Source of the DNA: Massilicoli timonensis
GTDB taxonomy: Bacteria > Bacillota_I > Bacilli_A > Erysipelotrichales > Erysipelotrichaceae
Direction: 5' to 3'
Assembly: GCF_900199515.1 (NCBI RefSeq)
Contig: NZ_LT963433.1
Location: 30,001-62,000, forward strand
DNA length: 32,000 nt
Shown here: positions 3,408 to 27,415 of the stretch, piece after piece
Numbering within the stretch: position 1 is the stretch's first letter
How the letters are laid out: every line of letters begins with the position of its first letter
Notes under the pieces: model-generated
What the model saw: the letters and a program-made list of their open reading frames with translations, nothing else
What the model was told of the DNA's origin: nothing
Database searches by the model: none
Translations under genes and position numbers: made by a program

Positions 3408-4561
3408 ATATCTATATCCTTTCGTAATACTTTTTCTAATTCATTCAACCTTATACATATTATATTTTCTTTTCTTTTAATAAAATGCTCATTAATTCTC
3501 TTTAAATAGTTTTTGGGTTTTTTATTTGGAACAACATATAGTAACTTAGAGCCTTCTTCCATATGAGGAATACGATCATGAATGATATAATTAACATTTT
3601 CATGATCTTTGGCATCAATTAAATAGACCTTCTCATTTACTAACTTAACTCTGAAATCCCATGTATCATAAGTAGATTGATTTTCTCCAGGATATATATC
3701 ATAATCTAATACAATACTTGATTTTTTTAATTTATCTAATATATTTCTGATATTATTTTCTAAAATTCCCGGTTGATAGATGCATTTTGCGACAAAATCA
3801 TTCATGATCAAAGCTTGAGATATATTTATTTCTTCTCTTTCATCAATCTTTTTATTACACTCTTTAGTAATACATTTAAAGTTTCCTGATTCATCTTGTT
3901 TAAGAACCATTCCACAATTCTTACATAGATATATTTTATTTTTATTGCTGCTATTTTTTGTATAGCAAAGTTTAACTAGATCTTCATATGAATCTATAAA
4001 CTTCTTTTGCTCTTCCGTCTGGTCAATTTTGTTACAAGGAATATAAACATTTGCTTCATTTATAAGAAAAAGTCTTTTAGTAACATAATCTTGTTCAAAC
4101 ATATTTTCGATTATTTTTTGTGAATGATACTCTCTTAATGGGTTCTTATTTTTAACAGATTTGCGTATTTTGATATTATTAGACATAACAAAGTATCCCT
4201 GATCTGTAATAGCAAACCTACATTTCTCTGTATCGATACATTCGACCAAAGCCTCGATGAAATAGAGTTTTGTTTCTTCTTTTATTTCTTTTGAATATTC
4301 AGTAGGTAATTGATCAATAAGTTCAGCTAATGGTATTTCAAATATATTAAACAATTCCCATTCTGTTTGAGGTAGTATGTGTTGACCATTTTGATATAAA
4401 CCAAATTTACAATTCAAAAACGCACCATTCGCACACGCCCTACGCAGTGCAGGAATATCCTCATTCAAATCAACACACTCTTCGTTTGAAAAAAGCCTTT
4501 GATGAAGTCCGATGATTCCCAAAAAAATCATATCGCTAAATTTGTCTGTAAAATCGCTCAT
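3404..4561 (-). CDS. Zn-ribbon plus PD-(D/E)xK restriction-endonuclease-fold protein (first gene of operon)
   Basis: ORF-track ORF 3404-4645. The preferred start is Met29 (ATG 4561-4559), preceded by AAGGAGG (cttttaaggaggattcacATG). It has a CxxC...CxxxC ribbon (CKNCGMVLKQDESGNFKCITKEC). The C-terminal WDFRVKLVNEKVYLIDAKDH fits D...(D/E)xK. Confidence 0.65.
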   Translation of the reverse strand: MSDFTDKFSDMIFLGIIGLHQRLFSNEECVDLNEDIPALRRACANGAFLNCKFGLYQNGQHILPQTEWELFNIFEIPLAELIDQLPTEYSKEIKEETKLYFIEALVECIDTEKCRFAITDQGYFVMSNNIKIRKSVKNKNPLREYHSQKIIENMFEQDYVTKRLFLINEANVYIPCNKIDQTEEQKKFIDSYEDLVKLCYTKNSSNKNKIYLCKNCGMVLKQDESGNFKCITKECNKKIDEREEINISQALIMNDFVAKCIYQPGILENNIRNILDKLKKSSIVLDYDIYPGENQSTYDTWDFRVKLVNEKVYLIDAKDHENVNYIIHDRIPHMEEGSKLLYVVPNKKPKNYLKRINEHFIKRKENIICIRLNELEKVLRKDIDI

Positions 4562-4696
4562 GTGAATCCTCCTTAAAAGAAAAAGCTCAATATATCTGAA
4601 AAATATATCGAGCAAATTTATGGTTTCACAAAAAAACAATAACAATATAACTACCAGTGTTTTATAATGCTGATATAATTTTTCGAATACGCTTTC

Positions 4697-4888: not shown

Positions 4889-6172
4889 ATGAAAAATTCT
4901 AATGCTTTTTCACATTTGACTTTGGATGAACGACGCATCATCCTCACCGGCATCACTAACGGCTCTTCCAAATCTGCCATTGCTCAGACCATCGGTAAAG
5001 ACAAGTCCACTGTCGCTAAAGAGATCAAACTTCATCGGATCCTCTCCTATAAATGCACTCTCCCTCTGGAATGCATTCATTACCGTAAATGTCTCCACGG
5101 CAGACAATGTACTCTCGACTGTCCCGATTACGGCCCCTTCCGCTGTTCCAGACGAGATTGCTCCCCCGGTGCCTGTAATGGCTGCTCCAACTGGTCCCAT
5201 TGCCGATTCGACAAGTATAGGTATTCTCCGGAACAAGCACATCATGATTACCGAGCCACTTTGTCTGGCTCCCGGGAAGGGGTAAATCTGACAGTACAGG
5301 AAGCCAAAACTATGGCTGCCATCATCGCTCCCCTGCTGAAACAGGGTCACTCCCCCTATCAGATCATCACCAACCATCCTGAACTGGGGATTTCTGAAAA
5401 GACCCTTTACAATTACATCGAACAGGATGTTTTCCATGAAGTTGCCGGTATTACTGTCATGGATCTGCGACGACAGGTATCCCGAAAGCTCCCTAGAAAG
5501 AAAGCAAAGGGCTACAAGAAACGAACTGATAGAAAATATCTGGCAGGAAGAACCTATAAAGATTATAAGGCTTTCCTTTCTGAATATCCGGATGCCTTCA
5601 TCGTGCAGATGGACACTGTCTATAACGATGAAAAAAGCGGACCTTTCCTCCAAACTTTTAAGTTTGTAAAGACAGGACTTCTTTTTGCGCTCTATCATGA
5701 GGAAAAAACTGCTCGCTCCATGTTAAAAGGCGTGAATCTGCTTGAGTCTATCCTTGGGGAAGAACTGTTTCGAAAATATGTCCAGATCATTCTCACAGAC
5801 AGAGGATCCGAATTCTCAGCAGCCGAAGCCATGGAAAACGGAGCTAACGGGACCAGGAGAACACGGGTATATTATTGTGACCCTATGCAGTCCGGACAGA
5901 AAGGAACGCTGGAAAACAAACATATCGAGCTGCGCTATATCCTCCCAAAAGGAACAGACTTGAAAGCCTTGGGGCTGACCGGACAGACTTCATTGAACAA
6001 GGTCCTCTGTCATGTGGATTCTTCTCCTGAAGAATCCCTAGGCGGAAGAAGTCCTCTTGAACTGACAGCGTTTCTGTATCCGGATCTTTATAAAAAGCTA
6101 TGTGCTTTTGGTATTCAGCAGATCCCAAAGGATCAGGTGATCTTAAAACCGTATTTATTAAAAAACAAATAA
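4889..6172 (+). CDS. IS30 family transposase
   Basis: 427 aa. N-terminal HTH (LTLDERRIILTGITNGSSKSAIAQTIGKDKSTVAKEIKLHR). DDE triad context: QMDTV, TDRGSEF, GQKGTLENKHIELRYILPKGTDL. Confidence 0.9.
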   Translation: MKNSNAFSHLTLDERRIILTGITNGSSKSAIAQTIGKDKSTVAKEIKLHRILSYKCTLPLECIHYRKCLHGRQCTLDCPDYGPFRCSRRDCSPGACNGCSNWSHCRFDKYRYSPEQAHHDYRATLSGSREGVNLTVQEAKTMAAIIAPLLKQGHSPYQIITNHPELGISEKTLYNYIEQDVFHEVAGITVMDLRRQVSRKLPRKKAKGYKKRTDRKYLAGRTYKDYKAFLSEYPDAFIVQMDTVYNDEKSGPFLQTFKFVKTGLLFALYHEEKTARSMLKGVNLLESILGEELFRKYVQIILTDRGSEFSAAEAMENGANGTRRTRVYYCDPMQSGQKGTLENKHIELRYILPKGTDLKALGLTGQTSLNKVLCHVDSSPEESLGGRSPLELTAFLYPDLYKKLCAFGIQQIPKDQVILKPYLLKNK

Positions 6173-6589: not shown

Positions 6590-7975
6590 TTATAAAAATA
6601 AATCATCAATTATTAACAGAACCGCGCCATCTATTTCAGCTTGCCTTTTCACCGGTTCTGTATATCCTGACTTGCTTACAAAATACAAATATTTTTCTTC
6701 AATATCAGGAAATGCTTTTGTTGCATTTACAAGGTCGTTATATTCTTCAAGAGGCATTGGGCTAGATGTGAACTTACACTCCATAAAAATTGCCTTTTTA
6801 CCACTACGATCAATTGCTAAGACATCAACATCATCTTGTGCTTTTATTACAGGATTGTTTCCCCACCATTTTCCTATAGAGAATGGAATAAAAGGAAGTT
6901 TTCTTTTCTTTGCCTGGTGAATTAGATATTCTTTGCAAATACCTTCAAAAACATCTCCCATTAAATTTGATAGATCGCTCATAATCTCACTAGCAGCATC
7001 TTTTGGTCCTAACATTGCATAATAAGCATTATTTGTAAATTCATATCGAAACCAAAACTTTAAGAAGTTATCTTTGATGACATAAATTGATTTTTTAGAT
7101 TTTTCACTTTCACCACATGGAACCCTTTTTTCAATCAAACGTAAAGTTTGAAGTATGGATAAGTATTTAGATACTTTTGTTTGATCCTCATGAATATAAT
7201 CTGCAATTTCAATGATTCTATTTCTGCCGTTTGATATTGCAGAAAGAATGGAATTATACGTATTTGTTTCTCGTAATTCTGCCTTTAATAAATTATCAGG
7301 TTCTTCATGCAAATAAGCACCATTTCGAATAATCTTAGATGTTATATTTTCTTCAATTGATTTGTTCGCATCAAAAGCTTCTAAATATCTTGGAATACCA
7401 CCTAAAATGCCATAAGCAATTAGCTTATCTTCATTACTATAGTTAGGAAAGAAGTTACTACTTTCTAAATAGTCAAAAGGTGTGATTTCTAGAGTAGCAG
7501 TTTGACGATCATGTAATGGACTTTTTCTTCCCATGATTTCATTTTCCATCACACTTACTGAAGAGCCACAAAGAATTAAAAAGATATTTTCATTCTTCCA
7601 GCTATGGTCAATTGCGTGTTGTAGGAGTGATTTTACAGAAGGATTTTCTTCAATGATATATGGAAATTCATCAATAACAAGTGCAGTTCTATCCTGTATC
7701 TTATTACCGATATAAGAAAAAGCATCTTCCCAACTTTTAAATGATGAAATAAATTGCTTGTTGAAGTGAAGTTGTATTGTTTTTGAAAAGTCTTCTAAAT
7801 TTAAGGCATCGTTTTTTTCACGTGCTGGAAAAAAGATTGTATTTGTATTCTTTGAGAATTCTTGTAGTAATGTTGTTTTCCCTACTCTTCTTCTACCATA
7901 CATTACTAGAAATTCAAACTTACTACTTTCGTATAATTCATTTAAATAAGTTAATTCTTCTACTCTTCCTAACAT
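6590..7975 (-). CDS. AAA+ ATPase of the ATPase_2/DUF234 (COG1672-like) family with C-terminal PD-ExK-like motif
   Basis: 461 aa. Walker A GRRRVGKTTLLQEF; Walker B/DExx ALVIDEFPYI. The C-terminal DVDVLAID...AIFMECKF resembles a restriction-endonuclease-fold core. GGAGG lies 6 nt upstream of the ATG. Confidence 0.8.
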   Translation of the reverse strand: MLGRVEELTYLNELYESSKFEFLVMYGRRRVGKTTLLQEFSKNTNTIFFPAREKNDALNLEDFSKTIQLHFNKQFISSFKSWEDAFSYIGNKIQDRTALVIDEFPYIIEENPSVKSLLQHAIDHSWKNENIFLILCGSSVSVMENEIMGRKSPLHDRQTATLEITPFDYLESSNFFPNYSNEDKLIAYGILGGIPRYLEAFDANKSIEENITSKIIRNGAYLHEEPDNLLKAELRETNTYNSILSAISNGRNRIIEIADYIHEDQTKVSKYLSILQTLRLIEKRVPCGESEKSKKSIYVIKDNFLKFWFRYEFTNNAYYAMLGPKDAASEIMSDLSNLMGDVFEGICKEYLIHQAKKRKLPFIPFSIGKWWGNNPVIKAQDDVDVLAIDRSGKKAIFMECKFTSSPMPLEEYNDLVNATKAFPDIEEKYLYFVSKSGYTEPVKRQAEIDGAVLLIIDDLFL

Positions 7976-8269: not shown

Positions 8270-10111
8270 CTACTCCCTTAGATAAATTGCCTTCTTATTT
8301 TTATGAGGTCTTTTTATCACACCTTCAACTTCTAACTGCTTGATCTGTTTCATAAAAATACCTTTATAGGAATACGTATAACCTTGATCGAGTAAAGCTT
8401 GATGAACACTTTTCAAAGAAAACATTTGATCTACCACTTGTTTTCCAATCTCCTCAATGATTGCTTTACGATATGTTTCTTTTTCTTCATCAACTATCAT
8501 AACATTCGCATCAATTTTATACGAAAAATATCCCTTGAAGTGAAATACAATTCGATTATCATGCACAACAATTTTATGAAATAGTATTTGTAGTTCTTTC
8601 TTACTATAATCCTGTTTATGAATCATTTCATCTATCACATCTAGTGCTGTTGTAAATCGTTCTTCATGCAAAGAGTAACTCTCTATTTCTTTTTCTAATA
8701 ACGATATATTCTCTTCACACTCTTTCATCATTTTTGCTTTTTCATCAATCAAAGATTGATAAGATTCTTGTATAATTTCATAATTCTCAGGTTCAGTCAT
8801 ACTTTCTCTCATCTTATTTTCAATCAACTGTTTGACTTCTAACTTTAACTGAGTAACTTTTGTTTTATGAGAAGTAATCTTTTTAGAAATACGCTTTATA
8901 TCTTCATCTTTTGTATCAGCATGAATCTGTTCTTCTAAAAAATCTTTATATACATCTCTGCATCGCTGCAAGAATATCGTAACTGCTTTTTTTAGTTCAT
9001 GTTCAGTTACAGACTTTGAACTACACGCTGTTTTGCCTTGTTTAAGATAAGTTGAACAGTAATAGTGAGTATTTCCTTCTCGAATATCTTTTATTGTTCT
9101 AGAGGGCTTTAATAGACTGCCACAGTCTGCACAATATAATAAACCATGAAATACATTCTCATGAATTTTTCGTTTTCTTTTAGACCGTACTTTCTTACTT
9201 TCTAACTTTTCTTGACAAATACAAAACAACTTTTCATCAATAATTGCTTCATGATGATGTTGAAAGATTTTCCATTTCTCTTTAGGAAGTTTTTGATATT
9301 TTCCTCTAATCTTCACACATTCTCCTTTATGAAGAATTAAAGTTCCTAGATACGTTTCATTCATTAAAATCCTACGCACACAAGAATCATTCCAAACATC
9401 AGTATATTTACTCTTATCATCTACTCCATTTTTTAAACGAAATTCATGTAAAGAACGAGATGGTGTTGGAATATGTTCTCTTGTTAGTGTACGAGCAATT
9501 TGTAAGATACCATAACCATCCCCATACATTTGAAAGATACGTTTTACTACATTAGCATTCACTGGATCAACTACTAACTGAGCACTTTTCTTACTCACTT
9601 TACGATATCCAAAAGGTGGAGTTGTCATCCATTCTCCATCATCTTGTTTCATGTGAATGACATTCTTTACTTTCTTACTTGCTTCTTTGACATACAGTTC
9701 ATTGTGCCATGTTTTAATACCAATCGTAGAATCATTATCTTGAAAATTAGAATATCCATCATCTAATGCAATGACTTCACAACCATAATCCCTTGCATCT
9801 TCCATAAACAGAAGGGCACGAGCATTATGTCTTCCTAATCTTGACATATCTTTAATTAACAATCGTTTCACTTTACCAGATGCGATATCTTTATTCAAAC
9901 GATCAAATTCTGGACGTTCAAATGAATAACCACTTTCTCCATCATCAATATACCGTTCGCTAATCGCATAATGATTTTCTTTCGCAAATCGTGTTAATAT
10001 CTTATCTTGGTTTTCAATGGATATAGAAAGGCCTTTGTTTCGATCATCTCTTGATAATCTTAAATAAAGAACAACATCACGATCTTTTGTCTCTACCATA
10101 AAATCAATCAT
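8270..10111 (-). CDS. large serine recombinase (TnpX/TndX-like)
   Basis: 613 aa. N-terminal resolvase catalytic motif VVLYLRLSRDDRNKG...ENQ. Recombinase domain and Zn ribbon (CADCGSLLKP...YYCSTY). Coiled-coil region, then an LQILFHKIVVHDNRIVFHFKG segment like the DUF4368 region of TnpX-type enzymes. Confidence 0.9.
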   Translation of the reverse strand: MIDFMVETKDRDVVLYLRLSRDDRNKGLSISIENQDKILTRFAKENHYAISERYIDDGESGYSFERPEFDRLNKDIASGKVKRLLIKDMSRLGRHNARALLFMEDARDYGCEVIALDDGYSNFQDNDSTIGIKTWHNELYVKEASKKVKNVIHMKQDDGEWMTTPPFGYRKVSKKSAQLVVDPVNANVVKRIFQMYGDGYGILQIARTLTREHIPTPSRSLHEFRLKNGVDDKSKYTDVWNDSCVRRILMNETYLGTLILHKGECVKIRGKYQKLPKEKWKIFQHHHEAIIDEKLFCICQEKLESKKVRSKRKRKIHENVFHGLLYCADCGSLLKPSRTIKDIREGNTHYYCSTYLKQGKTACSSKSVTEHELKKAVTIFLQRCRDVYKDFLEEQIHADTKDEDIKRISKKITSHKTKVTQLKLEVKQLIENKMRESMTEPENYEIIQESYQSLIDEKAKMMKECEENISLLEKEIESYSLHEERFTTALDVIDEMIHKQDYSKKELQILFHKIVVHDNRIVFHFKGYFSYKIDANVMIVDEEKETYRKAIIEEIGKQVVDQMFSLKSVHQALLDQGYTYSYKGIFMKQIKQLEVEGVIKRPHKNKKAIYLRE

Positions 10112-11550: not shown

Positions 11551-11690
11551 GGGCGCTTTAACTTTTTGCGTAGCTATTTTAAAGGCGCTTTAAATTGATG
11601 CGTAGGTGTGGAGGACCTTTAACTTTTTTCGTGGCTATTTTCAAACCTATTTAACTTCATGCGTGGATACCCTTTAACACCTTGCGTGGG
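11551..11690 (+). repeat. five direct subterminal copies of TTTAAC(N4-5)TGCGT(A/G)G-like motif at the ISL3 left end
   Basis: The copies are gctttaactttttgcgtagc, gctttaaattgatgcgtagg, cctttaacttttttcgtggc, tatttaacttcatgcgtgga and cctttaacaccttgcgtggg. Confidence 0.6.
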
Positions 11691-11773
11691 TGTCCACTTT
11701 TACTATGAAAAAAATAACCTTCATGTTACTTTTTCTTTGCCGTGAAACTTTAACACGAAGGAGGTATCAACCT

Positions 11774-13093
11774 ATGTATGATTTTATCACAGATCTATTC
11801 AATATCGACAAAAATTTGATTCAATTTTCTGATATCAAATCTTCTCCTGATCTAACCCAACTTTTTATTGCTCTTAAACCCACTAATCCTCCTTGTCCTT
11901 ACTGTAGTGGTATTTTCCACTCCAATGGTTATCATCGTCCTAAATATATCAATCACCCTAAACTTACTGATCGTAAGTGTGTCATCGTTTTCAAAAATAA
12001 TCGTTATCAATGCAACGAATGTCTTCGTACTTTCTCCGGTAAGAATCCTTTTACTTTCTCTACCTTCAAAAACTCTTACCTTGCTTTGAATAACATTATG
12101 AAATCTCTTTCCAATCTCAACTATACTTATTCTATGGTAGCTCAACTCAATCACATCTCCATTACGCAAGTACAGCGTTACTTTGACAGCTTTGTCAATA
12201 TCCCTAGAATTCATCTTCCTGAATCAATTGGTATCGATGAAATCCATTCTAAGATGGCAAATCGTAGAGATTCTGCTTATTTATGCATTATGGTAGATAA
12301 TGTAAATAGATCCTTATTTGAAATTCTTCCTTCTCGTTCTAAGGCTGAATTAAAACGCTATTTCGATAAAATACCTCTTGCAGAGAGAAATAACGTGAAA
12401 TACGTAACGATTGATATGTGGTTGCCTTATAAAGATATCGCTGCTACTTATTTAAGGAACGCTATTATCGCTGTTGATCCTTTCCATGTTGTAAAACACC
12501 TCATGGATTGTTTCACTCGCATTCGTCTTAATATCCTTTATCAAGTGGAATACAACAGTAATAGTTATTATCTCTTAAAAACTTGGAAAGATTTGATCGA
12601 AAAAGATGTTTATTTAGATAATAAACCTGTCTACAACAAACGATTTAATAGAAAGTTGAACAAAAGAGATCTGCTTGATATGATATTGGATATTAGTGAA
12701 AACTTAGCTCTTGCATATCGTTTGAAAGAGATGTATTTACTCTTTAATCAGAAAGCAACTGAAGAAAATTGTGAACAATGGTTTAATTCTATTTATGAGG
12801 CTTTTATAGAGGCACAGATTCCTGAATATCATGAGTTTATTATTCTCCTTAACAATTGGAAAATTGAAATACTCAATTCATTCAAAAGACCTTTTGATAA
12901 TAGAAAGCTTAGTAACTCTCTTTCTGAAAACATCAATGGTCAGATACGTACTTATCTGGCGATTTCTAATGGTGTTACTAATTTCACTAGATTTAGAAAA
13001 AGATGTCTTTTAGCTCTTAATAAAAAAGTTTTCTATTCTATTAATGATCACTTAAAGTCTGATAAAAATTCTAAGAAAAATCATTCATTATAA
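11774..13093 (+). CDS. ISL3 family transposase
   Basis: The ORF track gives 11690-13093. The preferred start is ATG 11774, preceded by GAAGGAGG. It has a zf-ISL3-like CPYCSG...H...C..C and DDE_Tnp_ISL3 motifs IGIDEIH, VTIDMWLPYKD and AVDPFHVVKH. Confidence 0.9.
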   Translation: MYDFITDLFNIDKNLIQFSDIKSSPDLTQLFIALKPTNPPCPYCSGIFHSNGYHRPKYINHPKLTDRKCVIVFKNNRYQCNECLRTFSGKNPFTFSTFKNSYLALNNIMKSLSNLNYTYSMVAQLNHISITQVQRYFDSFVNIPRIHLPESIGIDEIHSKMANRRDSAYLCIMVDNVNRSLFEILPSRSKAELKRYFDKIPLAERNNVKYVTIDMWLPYKDIAATYLRNAIIAVDPFHVVKHLMDCFTRIRLNILYQVEYNSNSYYLLKTWKDLIEKDVYLDNKPVYNKRFNRKLNKRDLLDMILDISENLALAYRLKEMYLLFNQKATEENCEQWFNSIYEAFIEAQIPEYHEFIILLNNWKIEILNSFKRPFDNRKLSNSLSENINGQIRTYLAISNGVTNFTRFRKRCLLALNKKVFYSINDHLKSDKNSKKNHSL

Positions 13094-13250: not shown

Positions 13251-15191
13251 TCATCCACTTCTGCAATCAATTAAATTCCAATCTGAAAAAACACATTTTG
13301 ACTTTATGTAGGTACTTTCTTGTATCGCTAAGCAAAGTAGCTTATTTGGTCTACTCATACCTACATAAACACATTTTCTACTTTGTTCAACTTCCTTGCT
13401 GCTCCCTAACTTGCCAACTCCTAAATAAGGTAAGATGCGTTTTATGTCAGAAGAATTTTTATTTTCAGTTTCCAAATATAACGTAGCATCGTGTGTTTCG
13501 CCTTTAACACCATGCACTGTATCAAAAATAATTTTTCTATTATGCGTTTCATCAAAATAAATATTCAAACCCGATTTACTTGAATCGATTAATTTTGTTT
13601 CATCCATAAAATATAGTGGAACTTTCAAAAATGCATCTGTTTCATTGCATTCTGCACCGACAATATTATTCGCTATTTCTCTAATAACTGCATTCACATT
13701 TTCAATAGTATAACTCTGCAATGAAGATAATCGAAGAAATCCATCAGTATATACATCAAAATATTTTTCAGATAAAATACTTTTTATAGAATGCACTGTA
13801 TATTTATTGCCAGTTGCAGAATCAATACTCCCCGTATAACCAAATAATTTACATAAAAGCCGTCTCACTTCATTTTCTACTGAATATAGTTTTCCTTGTT
13901 GTAAATCCTTTGCTATTTTATCAATATAATTCCAGTATCTATTTGGATTTTTTACATTAATATTAGGATTAAATTTATCCCAGTAATCACCAATTTTTAA
14001 TCCAGCTAATTCTTCTCGTTTTACTAGTCCAATCATTTTATAAATTCCCTTAGAATCATATAATTCATTTTGATTTAACGCAGTAATAAATGCATCAACC
14101 ACTCTATCTCTTGTATCTTCATTAAAAACAATCAAAGTTGGAACATAAGATAAATATCCTTTAGACGAGATAATTTTTCTCTTTTCGGTTCTTAAATTCA
14201 CCAAAACATCAGCAACCTCCTGTCCATACCGATTAGAAGAAGCCATTTCCATGCATTCCTCATTTAGTAACCACTCAGTTTCTTGAGCTTTCTCAGAATC
14301 ATATATAGCTTGATCTGGATCGCCAATATGAAATACGCAAGTTTTGTTTTTATCAAAAATTTTATTTAGAACTTGTCTTTGTATTAAATCACAGTCTTGA
14401 TATTCATCAATAAATACATATTTAAATCGCATTGAAAAGAGTTCCGTATATGCTTCAGATAAATTATCCATAGCTTCCTTAGCATATGAATAAGCATCTT
14501 TGTATCGAATCATACCCTCTTCTTTTAACAAATTTGAAATTAAGTTTTTAAATTGTTCCGTTGATGGCTTATCCGCACCTGCTAGTGCTCTTTTCTGATT
14601 TCCTATGCATAAAGTCCCATTATCACGTATATGTAGTGCCTCTATATGTTCAAGTTGATCGGTGAACTGATTACCCGTTTCAAAATTTTTTTCTACCACA
14701 AATTTCAACGCCCTATACTTTGACCTGCTCTTCATTTTAATCAACATATGATTTGCATATGTACGATTATCAACTACTTGAATATTACGACCTGAAATAT
14801 TGCGTAAATAAGGCATTGTTACAAACTTGTCAACAAATGATTGTATTGTTCCAACATAATTTGGATAATTTATAAGTCTATCTGCATATTCATTTAATTT
14901 TATTTTTATTTCATTAACAGCAACATTCGTATGTGATAAAACACATACTCCAGCTCCATCAGGAAGAGGCATTCTTTCAGCTAATAATTTTAATTTTGCA
15001 AGTAATACCGTAGTTTTACCACTTCCAGGACAAGCAGCAACATCTGATGATTTCCAACAACAGATGACTTTTTTTGCATCATCGGGAAAATGACAAAAAT
15101 CAGGTAAAAGTAGTTTCTCAACTTCTTCTATTTCTTCATCATTAATATGTATCTCACTCATTAAATTATCAGTCCTTTCGCTAATTTTCAA
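13251..15191 (-). CDS. gajB: UvrD/PcrA/Rep-like SF1 helicase, GajB-like (Gabija helicase component)
   Basis: 646 aa. Walker A AACPGSGKTTVLL; motif II VFIDEYQDC; C-terminal HGVKGETHDATLYL and YVGMSRPNKLLCLA. An alternative start Met11 (15161) has GAAAGGA upstream. It sits directly downstream of the OLD-family gene. Confidence 0.75.
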   Translation of the reverse strand: MKISERTDNLMSEIHINDEEIEEVEKLLLPDFCHFPDDAKKVICCWKSSDVAACPGSGKTTVLLAKLKLLAERMPLPDGAGVCVLSHTNVAVNEIKIKLNEYADRLINYPNYVGTIQSFVDKFVTMPYLRNISGRNIQVVDNRTYANHMLIKMKSRSKYRALKFVVEKNFETGNQFTDQLEHIEALHIRDNGTLCIGNQKRALAGADKPSTEQFKNLISNLLKEEGMIRYKDAYSYAKEAMDNLSEAYTELFSMRFKYVFIDEYQDCDLIQRQVLNKIFDKNKTCVFHIGDPDQAIYDSEKAQETEWLLNEECMEMASSNRYGQEVADVLVNLRTEKRKIISSKGYLSYVPTLIVFNEDTRDRVVDAFITALNQNELYDSKGIYKMIGLVKREELAGLKIGDYWDKFNPNINVKNPNRYWNYIDKIAKDLQQGKLYSVENEVRRLLCKLFGYTGSIDSATGNKYTVHSIKSILSEKYFDVYTDGFLRLSSLQSYTIENVNAVIREIANNIVGAECNETDAFLKVPLYFMDETKLIDSSKSGLNIYFDETHNRKIIFDTVHGVKGETHDATLYLETENKNSSDIKRILPYLGVGKLGSSKEVEQSRKCVYVGMSRPNKLLCLAIQESTYIKSKCVFSDWNLIDCRSG

Positions 15192-17097
15192 AATTCACTG
15201 AATATTTTATAGCATCTACTAAATACTTAAGATAAGGATCGGTTAAAATATTATCACTTAATTCTTTTTTCTTAGTTTCATCAATATTAGATTGATACAA
15301 ATCAAGGTCAAACATATCTACTTCTGTAAATCCTTCAGGAAGTATTGAAATATCTAACTTAATTAGAGCAACTAAACACTGAGCAACAATTGCCTTAAGA
15401 CCGCTTTTATCTGATTCATTCAGCATCAGTCGATACATTTCAAATGCTTTTTCCGAATGAGATAATCCTTTCCATTTATCATTGTCCTCCGTTATTTCTT
15501 TTTTAACTTCTTCTATTTTATCTTCTGTAAGTGCATATTTATCGCTATTTTTTATTTTCTTACCATAGCGAATTGCTTTATGAAATTTCTCCTGAAGACA
15601 ACTTAAAGCAATACAATATTCCAATGTCCATCTTGGTGAAGTAAAACCACAAACCGAACCACTTGTGTATTTTTTGTTTTTTTCTTTTTCTACCAGTTCG
15701 GATTCATTTACTTTTTCATTAAACTTTTTTTCTTTTGTTATTGGATCAATATCATATGGTTTTACATCACAATCTGTAACAACAGAAACAGGAATATCTA
15801 TTTTATCTCCATTTTTACGAACAAATATTCTGGAATATCTTAAAAAAGCAGTACTTCCAACATTAACAATAGATACTCCATACTTTTCAAGTGGATAATC
15901 TAAAACCTCTGCCAAAACAGGCAATAAAAGATTCTCCGCATCCCCTTCAACCATTAACACACCTCTTGCAAAGAACAAATTAGCCTTGGTTGCGTCTAAA
16001 AATCTTTGAAGAAATAAATAATCTCCTTTTTCTAGCTCAGTATTTCCATATGTCATATCATAGCCAATTCCATTTTTTAATAAAACTATATTCTTTAAAT
16101 TCACCTTTGAAGCCAAAATCGTACTATGCGTAGATATGATTATTTGAGTACCTGAATTATCATATTCTTTTTGTAAATAATCAATCAATCGAAGCTGAGC
16201 TTGAGGATGTAAATGTGCCTCTAATTCCTCTATCAATGCAAGTCTCAACCCTCCAGATGAATCAGCATTTAATAGCAATAATTCAGCTGCAATAAATAAT
16301 AAATTCAGCTCTCCCAATCCCGGATTTACTTCAGAAACTCTTAGAGATAAGCTCTCTAATATCTTTTTCAACTGAATATCAGCAACTTTTAACTGTGCTT
16401 CAGATGAAGTATTAGAAACATTAAACGCAGATAAATTGTTTCTGATTGTTTCTAATACTTCTTTTCCTTCTTCTTCGGTAAAATATTTTTCAATATCTTC
16501 ATTTGCTTTTGACAATATTTCCTTCAGTCTATGTTCTTCTTTATTCACAAACAAAGAGTGACCTGATAAGATTTGTGCTAATCTTGAATTTCTACCTGAA
16601 CTCATTTCTCGTTCAGCATCTCTAAGTGGTTTTAGATATACTGTTCTTAAAAGTTCTTTTGCCTTGCCATCCAAGATAATATTGTCATCTATGTTACCGA
16701 CTCTCAATTCGGAATATATTCTGTTCTTATCTTTCCAAGCACGATAATGTAGATTCATAGAATATTTGATTGTATCACCATTTTTTTCAAAGCATAAATA
16801 TTCAACAAAGTTTTTAGCTTCATTCTGTGTAAAATCATTAATAGTGCATTTTATACAAAATTCTTTTACCACGTTTCCATCTTCATCAGTATAAAAATCT
16901 TCATCTGTTGGTCGTACATACTCGTTACTTTGCGTAAGAAGAACTATTTTTAAAGCATCAATAATCGCAGTTTTTCCAGAATCATTCTCTCCAATAAGTG
17001 CATTTAAACCTTTATGAAAGCTAATTGATAATCCCGGTAAATCTCCATTGGACTTAAATTGTCTAAAATTATAGAGTTCTAATTTAGATACTATCAT
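15181..17097 (-). CDS. gajA: OLD-family ATPase-Toprim nuclease, GajA-like (Gabija nuclease component)
   Basis: 638 aa. Walker A LIGENDSGKTAIIDALK; Walker B-like LALIEELEAHLHPQ. Toprim motifs VLMVEGDAENLLLP, VVTDCDV and WTLEY. AAGGAGG lies 6 nt upstream of the ATG. Confidence 0.8.
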   Translation of the reverse strand: MIVSKLELYNFRQFKSNGDLPGLSISFHKGLNALIGENDSGKTAIIDALKIVLLTQSNEYVRPTDEDFYTDEDGNVVKEFCIKCTINDFTQNEAKNFVEYLCFEKNGDTIKYSMNLHYRAWKDKNRIYSELRVGNIDDNIILDGKAKELLRTVYLKPLRDAEREMSSGRNSRLAQILSGHSLFVNKEEHRLKEILSKANEDIEKYFTEEEGKEVLETIRNNLSAFNVSNTSSEAQLKVADIQLKKILESLSLRVSEVNPGLGELNLLFIAAELLLLNADSSGGLRLALIEELEAHLHPQAQLRLIDYLQKEYDNSGTQIIISTHSTILASKVNLKNIVLLKNGIGYDMTYGNTELEKGDYLFLQRFLDATKANLFFARGVLMVEGDAENLLLPVLAEVLDYPLEKYGVSIVNVGSTAFLRYSRIFVRKNGDKIDIPVSVVTDCDVKPYDIDPITKEKKFNEKVNESELVEKEKNKKYTSGSVCGFTSPRWTLEYCIALSCLQEKFHKAIRYGKKIKNSDKYALTEDKIEEVKKEITEDNDKWKGLSHSEKAFEMYRLMLNESDKSGLKAIVAQCLVALIKLDISILPEGFTEVDMFDLDLYQSNIDETKKKELSDNILTDPYLKYLVDAIKYSVNFEN

Positions 17098-17143: not shown

Positions 17144-17355
17144 TTAATTTTTCTCTGGTCGTATATCTAAAATATCATCAACACTACATTCTAATGTTCT
17201 ATACATCTTTACTAATACTTCCATTGATACATATTGATTCTTAGAAATCTTAGCCATCGTATTTTGACTGATTCCTGCTTTTTCTGCAAATTCCATTTTC
17301 TTCCATCTTTATCAATTAAAAGTTTAAATAATTTGTTGTAACAAACATCCATCAT
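17144..17355 (-). pseudogene. frameshifted XRE/Cro-C1-type HTH regulator upstream of gajA
   Basis: AGAGGA RBS plus ATG at 17355. Frame 0 gives MMDVCYNKLFKLLIDKD and then nonsense. The shifted frame gives KKMEFAEKAGISQNTMAKISKNQYVSMEVLVKMYRTLECSVDDILDIRPEKN, ending at TAA 17146-17144. This implies a 1-nt lesion near 17300-17308. Confidence 0.6.
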
Positions 17356-17774: not shown

Positions 17775-19574
17775 TTATTTATTTTCCTTCGTTTTCCAAA
17801 AACGATAAATTGGATATTTAGTAAATTCCTCTTTTTGATTAGATTTTAATTTGTTAAAATACCTTCTAGCTTGAACATGTTGATCTAATAACAAATATGC
17901 ACCTAATTTACACATATCATTAGTAGTTTTGTTTTCTATAATATTCCATAGGCATAGTTGTTCATCTTCATTTAAAGAACGCATTCTCTTAATCACTTGC
18001 AAATAATTTATTTCATTTATAGCATAATCTGTTTCTATAGCGCTATTTTTTATCCAAGTAGCAAAATTAAATGATGTATTTAACAAATCTTTTCTTTTAT
18101 CATTAGATAAATCATAGGAGTTTAGCAAAGTAAGTAAAAATCGTATAGGTCTTTCAAAATTTGTATCTTTTTGGTATTTTTGAAAATCAATTAGAAAATT
18201 TTCTGTACGAAGATTAGAAATTTCTAATAAATTTCTATCAATTAATAACTCATATTTTGAAACTAAAATTTGTTGTTCATTTTCATCAGTAAACCCAACC
18301 TGCATATCTTTATCAAAAAAATCAAATAGCATATGTTCAATTCTTTCTTTTGATTTATCTCTTTGTAAAACTATAAGAAAATTCAGGTTCCCAATAGGGA
18401 ACAAAGTAATTATAGGAAGATCTTCTCTCAAACCATAAACAGGTTTATTATCTAGCAATGCCACAGATAGGCGAAAGAGATTTCTAGCTTGTTCATCTGT
18501 CAATGTAGATAAATCTAAGTCCGAATTACATTTTAAAATATCAAAAACACGAACCCCTCTACGAATATAATCTAAACGTTGTCTTTGATCTTTTATATTA
18601 AAATTTGAAAAATCTGCATTATTCTCATCAAATGGGAATTTTGTATCTTCAATTTGAAAATATCCATTTTCAATAAATGAAAGCATAAAATCTAAATCTC
18701 TATTTAGAATTCTCATAAAAGATGAATCCTTATATTTTATTCTACATGTATTACTTCCTTTTGTAATAATAATCTTAAAACTATCTCCAAGCTTTATAGT
18801 TGTTTCTATTAATGATTCAGTAACAAAATAGGAGTTATAAAACACTTTGTTATTAATCGTTATTTCTTTGTGTATTTCGTGATGCGTAAATCTCTCTTGA
18901 GGAATTATTTCAATAGGCTGAAGAATATTACATCCTTTTATTTTGGCATATAAATAAACATCGTTTTTTAATAATGCTTCTTGAGGATCATTTATTCCTA
19001 TTCCTGAGAAAGGAATGGTTATTCCTTCTAATAATCCTTTTTTTTCTAATTCTTCCAAAGATTCTAATTTTGTATCTACAAAACTTGCTTGCTTTCTACA
19101 ATTTTGTAAACAATTAAGAAAGATCGTAGTTTTAGAACTCTTGTCCTTTGGAAATTCATATAAAGTAACAGATTTTGTTTTCTTTCCTTTTATATCATTT
19201 AGCAAAAAATTAAGTCTCATTGGTGTCAATTCTCTATAATATATTTTTGTTTCTGATTTTTCATTTACATACACAACAAAAAGAATTGCACCACCATCTT
19301 TTAAATAATTTTTTAAGTCAATAACATTCATAGAATATTTTATTTCTTTATTTGAAAAATTATTAGCAAATTTGCCTTTTACTTGAATTGGTATTCTTCC
19401 CTTTAATGTGTCTTTGGTTTTCTTTTTGTTATCATAAATATATATATTTCCATCCCATGATGGTTCTTTGTCATTATCTGCAACAAATTCATCTAAAAGA
19501 GGACAAACTGTTATACTGTTTCGAACAGCATTTACAGATAAAGTTTCTATTGTCTTGCTATTAAACTTTGCCAT
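17775..19574 (-). CDS. 599-aa protein with DUF4365-like PD-(D/E)xK nuclease N-terminal domain and uncharacterised C-terminal two-thirds
   Basis: AAAGGAG lies 10 nt upstream of the ATG. The N-terminus LSVNAVRNSI...DKEPSWDGNIYIY...GRIPIQVKGK...GGAILFVVYV fits my recollection of the DUF4365 pattern (D-G-x-D/ I ... QVK). No motif was recognised in residues about 170-599. Confidence 0.7.
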   Translation of the reverse strand: MAKFNSKTIETLSVNAVRNSITVCPLLDEFVADNDKEPSWDGNIYIYDNKKKTKDTLKGRIPIQVKGKFANNFSNKEIKYSMNVIDLKNYLKDGGAILFVVYVNEKSETKIYYRELTPMRLNFLLNDIKGKKTKSVTLYEFPKDKSSKTTIFLNCLQNCRKQASFVDTKLESLEELEKKGLLEGITIPFSGIGINDPQEALLKNDVYLYAKIKGCNILQPIEIIPQERFTHHEIHKEITINNKVFYNSYFVTESLIETTIKLGDSFKIIITKGSNTCRIKYKDSSFMRILNRDLDFMLSFIENGYFQIEDTKFPFDENNADFSNFNIKDQRQRLDYIRRGVRVFDILKCNSDLDLSTLTDEQARNLFRLSVALLDNKPVYGLREDLPIITLFPIGNLNFLIVLQRDKSKERIEHMLFDFFDKDMQVGFTDENEQQILVSKYELLIDRNLLEISNLRTENFLIDFQKYQKDTNFERPIRFLLTLLNSYDLSNDKRKDLLNTSFNFATWIKNSAIETDYAINEINYLQVIKRMRSLNEDEQLCLWNIIENKTTNDMCKLGAYLLLDQHVQARRYFNKLKSNQKEEFTKYPIYRFWKTKENK

Positions 19575-19692
19575 ATTTCATCAACTCCTTTTTTTACTTT
19601 CTATTTTCTGTATTAATTCAAAGAACTCTTTAAAACCCTCTTTTTTCTCAACTATATCCATTATACAAGTAATGTAAACTAATGAACAGAGA

Positions 19693-19791: not shown

Positions 19792-20076
19792 ATGGACAAA
19801 CGCTATGGCACGCCTGCCTGTCGAGCCGGCTATCCATTGCTTAAAAGCGGCAGCCGCGGTGTCTACGTATTAGTCTTACAAGATGCATTAAACGCCTTAG
19901 GCTATTCGACGAGAACTTTAGACGGTGCTTTTGGTGCCAACACCCGCAATGCTTTGATGGCATTCCAGCGCAATAACAACTTAAGTGCAGATGGCATATG
20001 CGGTTGTGCAACATGGACCAGACTAGTAGCAGAAGCAGTCGGTATCGGAAGAACAGACACCGTTATTGATCCATAA
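19792..20076 (+). CDS. peptidoglycan-binding (PG_binding_1-like) domain protein, probably a 5'-truncated remnant
   Basis: 94 aa: GVYVLVLQDALNALGYSTRTLDGAFGANTRNALMAFQRNNNLSADGICGCATWTRL. No RBS precedes the ATG. The GC-rich coding sequence begins exactly where the AT-rich island ends. Confidence 0.5.
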   Translation: MDKRYGTPACRAGYPLLKSGSRGVYVLVLQDALNALGYSTRTLDGAFGANTRNALMAFQRNNNLSADGICGCATWTRLVAEAVGIGRTDTVIDP

Positions 20077-20416: not shown

Positions 20417-20492
20417 TGGTGGTCCCGGTCGGAATCGAACCAACGACACAAGGATTTTCAGTCCTTTGCTCTACCGACTGAGCTACGAGACC
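20417..20492 (-). tRNA. tRNA-Phe (GAA)
   Basis: 76 nt. Sense strand ggtctcgtagctcagtcggtagagcaaaggactgaaaatcctt...gggaccacca; anticodon loop CTGAAAA; CCA encoded. Confidence 0.95.
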
Positions 20493-20495
20493 ATT

Positions 20496-20572
<77 letters not shown>

Positions 20573-20593
20573 ATGTATAAAGATTTTCAAAAA

Positions 20594-20684
20594 TGGCGGA
20601 GGAACTGGGATTCGAACCCAGGCGCCAGTTTCCCGACCTACCGGTTTTCAAGACCGGACCCTTCAGCCACTTGGGTATTCCTCC
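20594..20684 (-). tRNA. tRNA-Ser (TGA)
   Basis: 91 nt with a long variable arm; anticodon loop CTTGAAA; CCA encoded. Confidence 0.95.
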
Positions 20685-20697
20685 AGATGTTTTCTAC

Positions 20698-20774
20698 TGG
20701 TGGACCCTGTAGGACTCGAACCTACGACCCACCGGTTATGAGCCGGATGCTCTGACCAACTGAGCTAAGGGTCC
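20698..20774 (-). tRNA. tRNA with CAT anticodon, probably tRNA-Ile2 (lysidine-modified)
   Basis: 77 nt. Loop CTCATAA; acceptor stem GGACC/GGTCC (C4:G69, C5:G68), resembling the Bacillus/E. coli Ile2 type. The Ile2 versus Met identity is an inference. Confidence 0.85.
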
Positions 20775-20788
20775 ATTTTTTATCAAAA

Positions 20789-20865
20789 TGGTGGCTAGGG
20801 TGGGACTCGAACCCACGGCCTTCCGGGTATGAACCGGATGCTCTAGCCAACTAAGCTACCTAGCC
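20789..20865 (-). tRNA. elongator tRNA-Met (CAT)
   Basis: 77 nt; anticodon loop TTCATAC, as in Bacillus elongator Met; CCA encoded. Confidence 0.9.
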
Positions 20866-20872
20866 ATCTAAA

Positions 20873-20949
20873 TGGTCGGGATGACAGGATTCGAACCTGC
20901 GACCCCTTGATCCCAAATCAAGTGCACTACCAAGCTGTGCTACATCCCG
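20873..20949 (-). tRNA. tRNA-Pro (TGG)
   Basis: 77 nt; 5' cgggatg acceptor; anticodon loop TTTGGGA; CCA encoded. Confidence 0.95.
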
Positions 20950-20954
20950 CAGTA

Positions 20955-21031
20955 TGGCGCGCCCAGTAGGAATCGAACCCGCAACCTTTTGATCCGTAGT
21001 CAAACGCTCTATCCAGTTGAGCTATGGGCGC
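20955..21031 (-). tRNA. tRNA-Arg (ACG)
   Basis: 77 nt; anticodon loop CTACGGA; CCA encoded. Confidence 0.95.
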
Positions 21032-21257: not shown

Positions 21258-21893
21258 ATGAAAAAAACAACTGTCATTGAAATGCCGAAGCTCTCAAACG
21301 ATCAGCTGATTCCATACCAAAAGAACCGATTGACAGACAGCTACTACGAACAAACATGCTTTGATCATCTGCACATCGAACAATGTGGAGAACGCCTGCA
21401 TCTTTCATCATGCAAATTTGATCACTGCATCTTTTCCAAGTGCAATTTAGAACGCTTTGACGGTATGGATCTCCTATTTGACCACTGCGATCTTTCCAAT
21501 CTCGATTTATCCCACGCTGTTTTTCATCGCTGCATCTTCATCGACTGTCGCTTGACTGGCGCCGATTTCACCAATACCACTTTTCGCAATACGACCTTTC
21601 AAAATTGCAGCGCAGCCTACTTCAACGGCGCCTGCTCATCCTTCAAGCAATGTGCTTTTATTCAATGCGATTTATCCAACAGCTCTTTTAACGATTGTGA
21701 GCAGCAGCATCTCATCTTTCAGGAATGCAATTTGAATCAGTGTGAATTTCATCATACAAAAATGAATTGTGTCGATCTTTCTACCAGTACCATCGAAGGA
21801 ATTCTCCTTTCACTGGATACCATCAAAGGAATGAAAGTCAATCAGGAACAGGCGATCTCATTGGTCGCTTTGCTCGGCATCGAAATTGTTTAA
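21258..21893 (+). CDS. pentapeptide-repeat protein (Qnr/MfpA-like size and architecture)
   Basis: 211 aa of near-continuous A(D/N)LxX-type repeats (CDLSNLDLSHAVFHRCIFIDCRLTGADFTNTTFRNTTFQNC...). AAGAGGA RBS. Confidence 0.85.
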   Translation: MKKTTVIEMPKLSNDQLIPYQKNRLTDSYYEQTCFDHLHIEQCGERLHLSSCKFDHCIFSKCNLERFDGMDLLFDHCDLSNLDLSHAVFHRCIFIDCRLTGADFTNTTFRNTTFQNCSAAYFNGACSSFKQCAFIQCDLSNSSFNDCEQQHLIFQECNLNQCEFHHTKMNCVDLSTSTIEGILLSLDTIKGMKVNQEQAISLVALLGIEIV

Positions 21894-26546: not shown

Positions 26547-26622
26547 TGGTGACCCCTGGGCGATTCGAACGCCCGACCCTTTGATTAAAAGTCAAATGCT
26601 CTACCAACTGAGCTAAGGGGTC
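26547..26622 (-). tRNA. tRNA-Lys (TTT), copy 1
   Basis: 76 nt; anticodon loop CTTTTAA; CCA encoded; identical to 26895-26970. Confidence 0.95.
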
Positions 26623-26634
26623 ATAATAAAAAAA

Positions 26635-26710
<76 letters not shown>

Positions 26711-26717
26711 AAATAAA

Positions 26718-26793
26718 TGGTGGAGGTTAACGGGCTCGAACCGCTGACCCTCTGCTTGTAAGGCAGACGCTCTCCCAACTGAGCTAAACCTCC
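26718..26793 (-). tRNA. tRNA-Val (TAC), copy 1
   Basis: 76 nt; anticodon loop CTTACAA; CCA encoded; identical to 27340-27415. Confidence 0.95.
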
Positions 26794-26812
26794 AAATATA
26801 AAGTGATCTTGA

Positions 26813-26886
26813 TGGAGCGGATGATGGGAATCGAACCCACGTAGTCAGCTTGGAAGGCTGAAGTTCTACCATTGAACTACATCCGC
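26813..26886 (-). tRNA. tRNA-Gly (TCC), copy 1
   Basis: 74 nt; anticodon loop CTTCCAA; CCA encoded; identical to 26975-27048. Confidence 0.95.
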
Positions 26887-26894
26887 ATAAAAAA

Positions 26895-26970
26895 TGGTGA
26901 CCCCTGGGCGATTCGAACGCCCGACCCTTTGATTAAAAGTCAAATGCTCTACCAACTGAGCTAAGGGGTC
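26895..26970 (-). tRNA. tRNA-Lys (TTT), copy 2
   Basis: Identical to 26547-26622. Confidence 0.95.
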
Positions 26971-26974
26971 ATAA

Positions 26975-27048
26975 TGGAGCGGATGATGGGAATCGAACCC
27001 ACGTAGTCAGCTTGGAAGGCTGAAGTTCTACCATTGAACTACATCCGC
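26975..27048 (-). tRNA. tRNA-Gly (TCC), copy 2
   Basis: Identical to 26813-26886. Confidence 0.95.
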
Positions 27049-27053
27049 ATACA

Positions 27054-27129
27054 TGGCTGGGGTAACTGGATTCGAACCAGTGGAATGCAGGAGTCAAAGT
27101 CCTGTGCCTTACCGCTTGGCTATACCCCA
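27054..27129 (-). tRNA. tRNA-Gln (TTG)
   Basis: 5' tggggtatagccaagcggtaagg; anticodon loop CTTTGAC; CCA encoded. Confidence 0.95.
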
Positions 27130-27156
27130 ATTACTTACCAATATAAAATAAAATCA

Positions 27157-27240
27157 TGGTGGGAGAGGACAGATTCGAACTGCCGAACCAAAAGGAACTG
27201 AGTTACAGTCAGCCGCGTTTAGCCACTTCGCTACTCTCCC
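27157..27240 (-). tRNA. tRNA-Tyr (GTA)
   Basis: 84 nt with a long variable arm; anticodon loop CTGTAAC; CCA encoded. Confidence 0.95.
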
Positions 27241-27256
27241 ATGTATGATTTATAAA

Positions 27257-27332
<76 letters not shown>

Positions 27333-27339
27333 AAATAAA

Positions 27340-27415
27340 TGGTGGAGGTTAACGGGCTCGAACCGCTGACCCTCTGCTTGTAAGGCAGACGCTCTCCCAA
27401 CTGAGCTAAACCTCC
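27340..27415 (-). tRNA. tRNA-Val (TAC), copy 2
   Basis: Identical to 26718-26793. Confidence 0.95.

Follow-up and report, generated by a model that had tools for sequence, protein, structure and literature searches.

Results

The gene and its signals

The DNA analysed here, called the window, is a stretch of 32,000 nucleotides (nt) from Massilicoli timonensis (contig NZ_LT963433.1, positions 30,001 to 62,000). Its minus strand carries, next to a Gabija system, an open reading frame (ORF) that starts with ATG and encodes a protein of 599 amino acids (aa), considered below as a candidate defence nuclease. The gene and its signals are:

17775..19574, minus strand: whole ORF, with a predicted DREN/DUF4365 nuclease head and an uncharacterised 430-aa body (stop codon 17775-17777)
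19585..19589, minus strand: Shine-Dalgarno sequence AGGAG, 10 nt from the ATG (direct sequence reading)
19651..19678, minus strand: promoter-like TTTACA-16-TATAGT, 10/12 positions (consensus match only)

The ORF is a real gene. Under the local base composition, a run of 599 codons would lack a stop with a probability of ~4e-27, and the GC content by codon position, 36/27/15%, is what coding sequence in AT-rich DNA is expected to show. The sequence just 5' of the start reads AAGGAGTTGATGAAAT-ATG. The GC content of the window is 0.25 over 17-19 kb and 0.43-0.45 from ~20 kb on; just outside the AT-rich island, seven tRNA genes form an array (20417-21031, minus strand). Given this jump at ~20 kb and the tRNA genes from 20417 onwards, the 599-aa gene is therefore the last of the island. 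A first-pass annotation, made from the letters alone, had described a strong ribosome-binding site in front of a long, uninterrupted AT-rich ORF that lies beside Gabija at the edge of an island. The AGGAG at 10 nt, the improbability of so long a stop-free run, the GC step and the matches of the downstream neighbours to GajA and GajB (see below) bear out each of these points.

The nuclease head

The N-terminal part of the protein contains the following predicted elements:

19080..19574, minus strand: PD-(D/E)xK nuclease head (DUF4365, the same as DREN), residues 1-165 (Pfam, AlphaFold2 model, Foldseek)
19452..19454, minus strand: codon of D41, predicted metal-binding catalytic Asp at the start of β2 (conserved in 121/121)
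19377..19385, minus strand: codons Q64-V65-K66, putative QxK catalytic motif in β3 (Q64 121/121, K66 120/121)

Pfam DUF4365 (PF14280) matches residues 11-144 with 27.6 bits (E 3.4e-6), the gathering score being 24.3. The motifs by which the first-pass annotation had recognised an Mrr-like PD-(D/E)xK head of ~165 aa were located at residues 40-47 (WDGNIYIY), 61-68 (IPIQVKGK) and 97-103 (ILFVVYV), and its assignment stands, with a Pfam score above threshold and an intact D...QxK site. An AlphaFold2 model of the full-length protein, built from 47 sequences (pLDDT 87.7, pTM 0.68), gave the following secondary structure for the head: helix 6-22, strands 43-47, 57-69 and 77-83, a short helix 84-92 and strand 96-103. 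When this model was compared with solved structures by Foldseek, the top hits were the DREN-APAZ chains of SPARDA, 9qcc_M (E 3.6e-3, prob 0.89) and 9jsz_J (E 3.8e-3), with low TM values, the query being multi-domain. Hjc, DpnI and PvuII ranked below them with weaker matches.

Conservation was assessed in 121 full-length representatives, each from a different 50%-identity cluster. D41, G42 and Q64 are present in 121/121, K66 and G67 in 120/121 and E10 in 114/121, and Q64-x-K66 fits the DUF4365 motif DxGxD...QxK. The catalytic residues of the DREN domain of NbaSPARDA are D41, Q60 and K62 (PMC12205087), and those of the DUF4365 toxin EAT16 are D42, D46, Q66 and K68, three of the four single mutations having abolished toxicity (PMC11297309). 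D41, Q64 and K66 are the predicted counterparts of these residues, as judged by motif and not by residue-level structural superposition. The putative D41...Q64-x-K66 site is evidently under strict purifying selection. Because D41, G42, Q64, K66 and G67 are near-invariant across the representatives, the head is very probably an active nuclease.

The body

Secondary structure assignment by DSSP on the models divides residues 166-599 into three sub-domains:

18720..19079, minus strand: beta-rich sub-domain, residues 166-285, with no solved analogue
18240..18719, minus strand: alpha/beta sub-domain, residues 286-445, the most variable part
17778..18239, minus strand: all-helical C-terminal sub-domain, residues 446-599

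Mean identity of the family representatives to the window protein falls from 44% in the head to 33% in the helical, 31% in the beta-rich and 27% in the alpha/beta part. Polar residues of the helical part are strictly conserved among the 121 representatives (N454 in 99%; D488, N523, Q526 and R530 in 100%), and this patch is for that reason suggested as a candidate ligand-binding or interface site.

The body has no match in Pfam, NCBIfam, PADLOC or the sequences of the PDB. A profile of the full-length protein, run against PDB sequences, returned nothing at E <= 10, the BFVD library of viral structures gave no significant match, and Foldseek found only weak, non-significant helical-repeat (TPR-like) matches for the helical part. 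The first-pass annotation had recognised no NTPase, helicase or other catalytic motif in the body; likewise, Pfam, NCBIfam and PADLOC identified no NTPase, helicase or TPR/repeat family in the 599-aa protein, and no Walker A pattern is present.

The full-length Foldseek alignment to the SPARDA DREN-APAZ protein spans ~460 columns. An APAZ-like middle region was therefore suspected, and residues 166-456 were modelled separately (pLDDT 86.5). The best PDB match of this model had E 0.1 and prob 0.05, and its PDB matches included no SPARDA, SPARTA or SPARSA chain and no APAZ chain. An APAZ-like body was accordingly rejected.

Size and spread of the family

The first-pass annotation had called the protein an orphan, which it is not. 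At least 350 full-length relatives turned up in a word-indexed search; the best 120 of these are nearly all ~600 residues long, with ~99% query coverage and 43-53% identity outside the query's own cluster. A profile of the body only (residues 169-599), run against 1.84 billion cluster representatives, matched 2086 of them at E <= 1e-3; with the cut-off tightened to E <= 1e-10 and E <= 1e-30, 1589 and 734 matches were left. The 150 strongest of the 2086 matches are proteins of 580-633 aa whose body starts at about residue 162-200; shorter matches resemble fragments. PHROG 9827 (function unknown) covers the 599-aa protein from end to end (E 1.8e-75). By these profile matches, we are dealing with a large family with a fixed fusion of head and body.

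The architecture extends to distant members. Ten divergent members were scanned with Pfam; the DUF4365 head was found at E <= 0.01 in seven (two above the gathering score, five below), and no further domain was seen in the body except one weak match at chance level. Members of ~593 residues on plasmids of Lacticaseibacillus and Rathayibacter (Actinomycetota) align to the body profile with hhalign probabilities of 97-99%. RefSeq labels the plasmid copies ‘DUF4365 domain-containing protein’ or ‘hypothetical protein’. Viral contigs seldom carry the family (the patterns used picked out 4 loci in IMG/VR). The first-pass annotation could not place the architecture in a named defence system, and in agreement with this PADLOC-DB 2.0 gave no match.

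Two genomes, one of Faecalibacterium prausnitzii (L059, 9992-11748) and one metagenome-assembled genome of Oscillospiraceae (L040, 2373-4101), encode head and body in separate ORFs of ~150 aa and 443 aa; in another F. prausnitzii strain (L054) the gene is intact. The split copies are either frameshift pseudogenes or a natural split.

Genomic context

Gene contexts were compared in 77 loci, one genome per species, together with contigs carrying individual homologues; full-length copies are present at 58 species-level loci. Neighbours were labelled by phmmer from a set of 18 verified seeds, so that the counts are minimum values. Neighbour clustering, with identification by Pfam and PADLOC, revealed a recurrent arrangement of an SNF2 helicase (~1080 aa), a DUF4391 protein (~200 aa), the family gene, a type III Mod (~650 aa), a variable slot and a type III Res (~1040 aa). 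The family gene lies inside such an operon in 21 of the 58 loci. At locus L085 it is co-directional with its neighbours and separated from them by gaps of 3 nt and 0 nt.

The reading as a defence gene, put forward in the first-pass annotation, presupposed that homologues lie near defence genes. A restriction-modification (R-M) or defence gene does occur within 5 kb at at least 29 of the 58 loci, a lower bound counted with no background control. Copies directly follow BrxL (L008, L019), stand next to MmeI-like enzymes (L009, L034, L083) or beside type I R-M genes (L010, L069), precede the cas3/csd1 genes of a CRISPR-Cas I-C system (L052), adjoin an E1-E2-JAB fusion (L026), follow an ATPase_2/DUF234 gene of the PDC-S27 type (L078) or adjoin a SEFIR protein on a plasmid-prophage of Clostridium botulinum (L088). 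Neighbour clustering over ~59 loci showed no partner gene conserved across contexts, and none outside the set of type III operons. The 25 commonest families in a pooled Pfam scan of 123 neighbours include helix-turn-helix (HTH) proteins, YhcG/DUF1016, BrxL, MmeI, GmrSD_N, DpnII and PBECR4; no Piwi family is among these 25, nor does one appear in the contexts listed here. A search of plasmids for DUF4391 gave weak partial matches only.

Starting from the DUF4391 protein, we found contigs that represent the same chromosomal locus as L085. L085 and L092 share 90-97% nucleotide identity across the flanks and the SNF2, DUF4391, Mod and Res genes. The homology ends at the end of DUF4391 (L085:7986 = L092:7592) and restarts at the start of Mod (L085:9777 = L092:8471). 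The slot between these two points holds a family member of 596 residues in L085, a TIR-domain gene of 291 residues in L090, L091, L092 and L093, and a small 23S_rRNA_IVP gene in L094 and L095. Since the content of the slot differs between homologous flanks, the family gene is exchangeable cargo and not a fixed subunit of the operon. The TIR domain is known as the NADase effector of SPARTA (PMC12205087). Across these contexts, the family gene behaves as an autonomous cassette that moves inside and beside defence operons.

Some further features of these operons were noted. Up to three small 23S_rRNA_IVP (PF05635) genes sit in the gaps between core genes in L080 and L090-L095, and the second variable slot, between Mod and Res, is occupied by AbiJ/PDC-S32 or by unknown genes of 118-242 aa. 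The Mod gene is split into two or three ORFs, with Res intact, in L084 (9792-11675) and L092 (8487-10570). The broken Mod may reflect phase variation or decay.

The Gabija neighbour and the island

The genes downstream of the 599-aa gene are:

13251..17097, minus strand: complete Gabija system, adjoining but separate from the 599-aa protein (PADLOC models)
15181-17097, minus strand: gajA (PADLOC GajA, E 1.4e-208)
13251-15191, minus strand: gajB (PADLOC GajB, E 2.5e-164)

The 599-aa protein itself matches neither the GajA nor the GajB model of PADLOC. The 677 bp between its gene and gajA contain promoter-like sites (17502-17473 and 17412-17383) and a small HTH ORF of 50 aa (17144-17296, minus strand), which lies 46 nt upstream of gajA, matches PHROG families of transcriptional regulators and is identified as HTH_26 in the identical contig from ENA (L087). 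It is possibly a regulator of Gabija.

Adjacency of a family member to Gabija was seen in two independent cases. One is the window, whose ENA copy L087 is 100% identical; the other is plasmid p6 of Priestia megaterium (L089, 6001-11656), where a member of 22% identity is convergent to a GajB/GajA pair. In the latter, the family member directly follows two DndB-like genes. Two adjacencies are too few to call a linkage.

As a whole, the island resembles a mosaic mobile element, with three mobility genes. At the left end of the window, a PprDinG-like helicase with a pPIWI_RE domain Z (309-3407, minus strand; PADLOC E 6.4e-89) adjoins a weak pPIWI_RE_REase-like protein (3404-4645, minus strand). 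Both are genes of the pPIWI-RE system; no pPIWI gene was seen within the window, and one may lie beyond its left edge. A transposase (4889-6172, plus strand; PHROG 4646/HTH_38) is situated in a GC-rich patch (0.47) within the AT-rich DNA, a large serine recombinase is encoded at 8270-10111 (minus strand), and an ISL3 transposase (11690-13093, plus strand) separates Gabija from the remaining island. An ATPase_2/DUF234 protein (6590-7975, minus strand), the PADLOC candidate PDC-S27, shares the island. Its 41%-identical homologue in the unrelated contig L078 (8567-9979) lies 22 nt upstream of a family member, so that the pair occurs together in two cases.

Discussion

Proposed function and alternative explanations

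The 599-aa protein is likely to be a defence-related nuclease. The explanation which accounts best for the data as a whole, and which we regard as on balance probable, is that of an autonomous immune nuclease combining sensor and effector in a single polypeptide. The body would hold the nuclease inactive and sense an infection cue, perhaps a phage protein or a nucleic-acid structure. In response to it, the protein would self-associate and thereby assemble active DREN sites, and the ensuing indiscriminate degradation of DNA, and perhaps RNA, would stop the phage, probably at the expense of the cell. The step of self-association is proposed because the DREN domain of SPARDA is active only after oligomerisation, its collateral nuclease activity requiring assembly into tetramers or filaments (PMC12205087). 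This specific switch, with sensing, self-association and assembled DREN sites, is borrowed by analogy, and in this exact form we consider it rather doubtful.

Several points weigh against our explanation. The Pfam score of the head barely exceeds its threshold, the Foldseek match to SPARDA is marginal at E 3.6e-3, and a search of the PDB with a sequence profile of the head missed SPARDA, giving only two matches at chance level. The proximity to defence genes is a raw count and not an enrichment statistic with a background control, and the neighbours of some copies (L082, L021, L028) are ordinary. Oligomerisation, trigger and abortive infection are pure analogy. The literature searched contains neither a description of the family nor an experiment on any of its members; a paper on an enterococcal type IV enzyme deals with GmrSD and has no bearing on it.

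The main rival is a type IV-like restriction endonuclease that depends on DNA modification or structure, with a body that would read DNA and with neither abortive infection nor a protein trigger. A head of the Mrr/Hjc kind would suit such an enzyme, as would the weak fold matches to DpnI (4esj_A, E 0.2; 4kyw_A, over 219 columns), whose catalytic domain is N-terminal too. The embedding of the gene in R-M and BREX operons resembles that of BrxU and GmrSD, and the helical part offers conserved basic and polar residues, K529 and R532 being invariant in 47 close homologues and R530 also across the 121 diverse representatives. However, neither Pfam nor Foldseek detected a modified-base reader domain, whether SRA, EVE, YTH, winged helix or another reader fold, in the body, though the PDB is rich in them; an NTPase motor is likewise absent, and the DREN domains characterised so far are collateral, non-specific nucleases. 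We judge this rival unlikely, if deserving of attention. An accessory subunit of the SNF2-DUF4391 type III R-M operon or of Gabija, inactive alone, would explain the tight packing with DUF4391 and Mod and the adjacency to Gabija both in the window (with its ENA copy L087) and at 22% identity on the Priestia megaterium plasmid. Yet the same operon occurs with a TIR or a small 23S_rRNA_IVP gene in the slot, most family members have neither system nearby, and the Gabija of the window is already complete by the PADLOC models and set apart from the gene by 677 bp with promoter-like sites and the HTH ORF, all of which makes such a role very improbable.

A selfish or mobile-element role, be it as an addiction toxin, as a weapon between elements or as a junction-resolving or recombination nuclease, finds its arguments in the distribution of the copies. 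These are found on plasmids, on the C. botulinum plasmid-prophage and in integrative or conjugative contexts with TnpV, HTH_17, FtsK, ArdC and serine recombinases; the island of the window has its own large serine recombinase and two insertion sequences. The fold is akin to that of the Holliday-junction resolvase Hjc, and a DUF4365 domain is used as an injected toxin of extracellular contractile injection systems (eCIS). On the other hand, no conserved antitoxin or immunity neighbour emerged from the clustered loci, the commonest context is a chromosomal R-M operon with co-directional, tightly packed genes, and copies on viral contigs are as few as stated above. Such a role is therefore quite improbable, though less so than that of an accessory subunit. 

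A wider proposal can be built on the immune nuclease. The DREN collateral nuclease, known to date as the effector that Argonaute controls in SPARDA, would also serve an Argonaute-free family that spans Bacillota and Actinomycetota and numbers over 2000 clusters (50% identity). Its body, of new fold, would act as infection sensor and assembly switch, and the SNF2-DUF4391 operon would have a slot in which DREN and TIR effectors are hot-swapped. We offer this tentatively, as less likely than not. If it were true, restriction systems would gain a built-in, interchangeable back-up by abortive infection.

Comparison with known systems

The closest likeness is to the DREN-APAZ protein of SPARDA, which gave the best, if marginal, matches among solved structures and has the same N-terminal DUF4365/DREN domain, the same order of secondary structure elements and the same D...QxK residues. 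The 599-aa protein differs in that residues 166-456 form no APAZ-like region in the model, and in that no Argonaute gene is nearby, the neighbours in the window being Gabija and small ORFs; the 430-aa body takes the place of APAZ and prokaryotic Argonaute (pAgo) as presumed sensor. By analogy, the protein would work most like a SPARDA DREN effector while failing both testable defining features, APAZ and pAgo. In Divona, a single-gene defence cassette of the Vibrio cholerae chromosomal integron with demonstrated anti-phage activity, an N-terminal DUF4365 nuclease is also fused to another domain in a single protein encoded by a mobile cassette. There, however, the partner domain is crr6 (PF08847), which has no match at E <= 0.01 in the 599-aa protein, the comparison being one of domain content.

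Proteins of the Avs/STAND type are likewise single polypeptides with the effector first and the sensor last, and those with an Mrr-like nuclease effector are presumed to be activated by assembly. The 599-aa protein, by contrast, lacks a Walker A motif and an NTPase domain, be it STAND or another. The eCIS toxin EAT16 shares the DUF4365 head, the D/Q/K residues of which it needs for toxicity in E. coli (PMC11297309), but is a secreted effector encoded in an eCIS locus, whereas the members of the present family are predicted to be cytoplasmic, occur in defence operons and have another body.

The nesting of an unrelated gene as co-directional, exchangeable cargo in a DNA-modification system of several genes has parallels in the embedded genes of Hma, BREX, DISARM and type I R-M operons, which were surveyed by Payne et al. 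under the term ‘guilt-by-embedding’ (preprint 10.1101/2024.01.29.577857). The host operon here is mostly SNF2-DUF4391-type III Mod-Res, which lies outside that survey, and the supplements of the preprint do not mention DUF4365. The swap of TIR against DREN in near-identical type III R-M-like operons extends the principle to an operon type not yet surveyed, and constitutes a natural experiment on the combination of restriction systems with suicide effectors.

The protein is best described as joining a known effector domain to a new body, and belongs to a large family unflagged by current tools (no match in PADLOC-DB 2.0 or NCBIfam). It is a well-supported candidate rather than a surprise, and the TIR swap and the unknown fold raise its interest. 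If confirmed, it would add a large, taxonomically broad family of single-gene defences that current detection tools miss, present DREN as a portable effector paired with a sensor other than Argonaute, and open a new sensor fold to study. If not, it would be one more uncharacterised ‘DUF4365 domain-containing protein’.

Other features of the window

Three features outside the island complete the picture. A GC-rich ORF of 94 aa (19792-20076, plus strand) has a peptidoglycan-binding domain as its sole domain and is possibly a gene fragment left by an insertion. A second array, of ten tRNAs, is present at 26547-27415. A pentapeptide-repeat protein (21258-21893, plus strand) weakly resembles HalA, the effector of Hailong, but at 43 bits stays far below the cut-off of 250; the likeness is probably mere repeat similarity.

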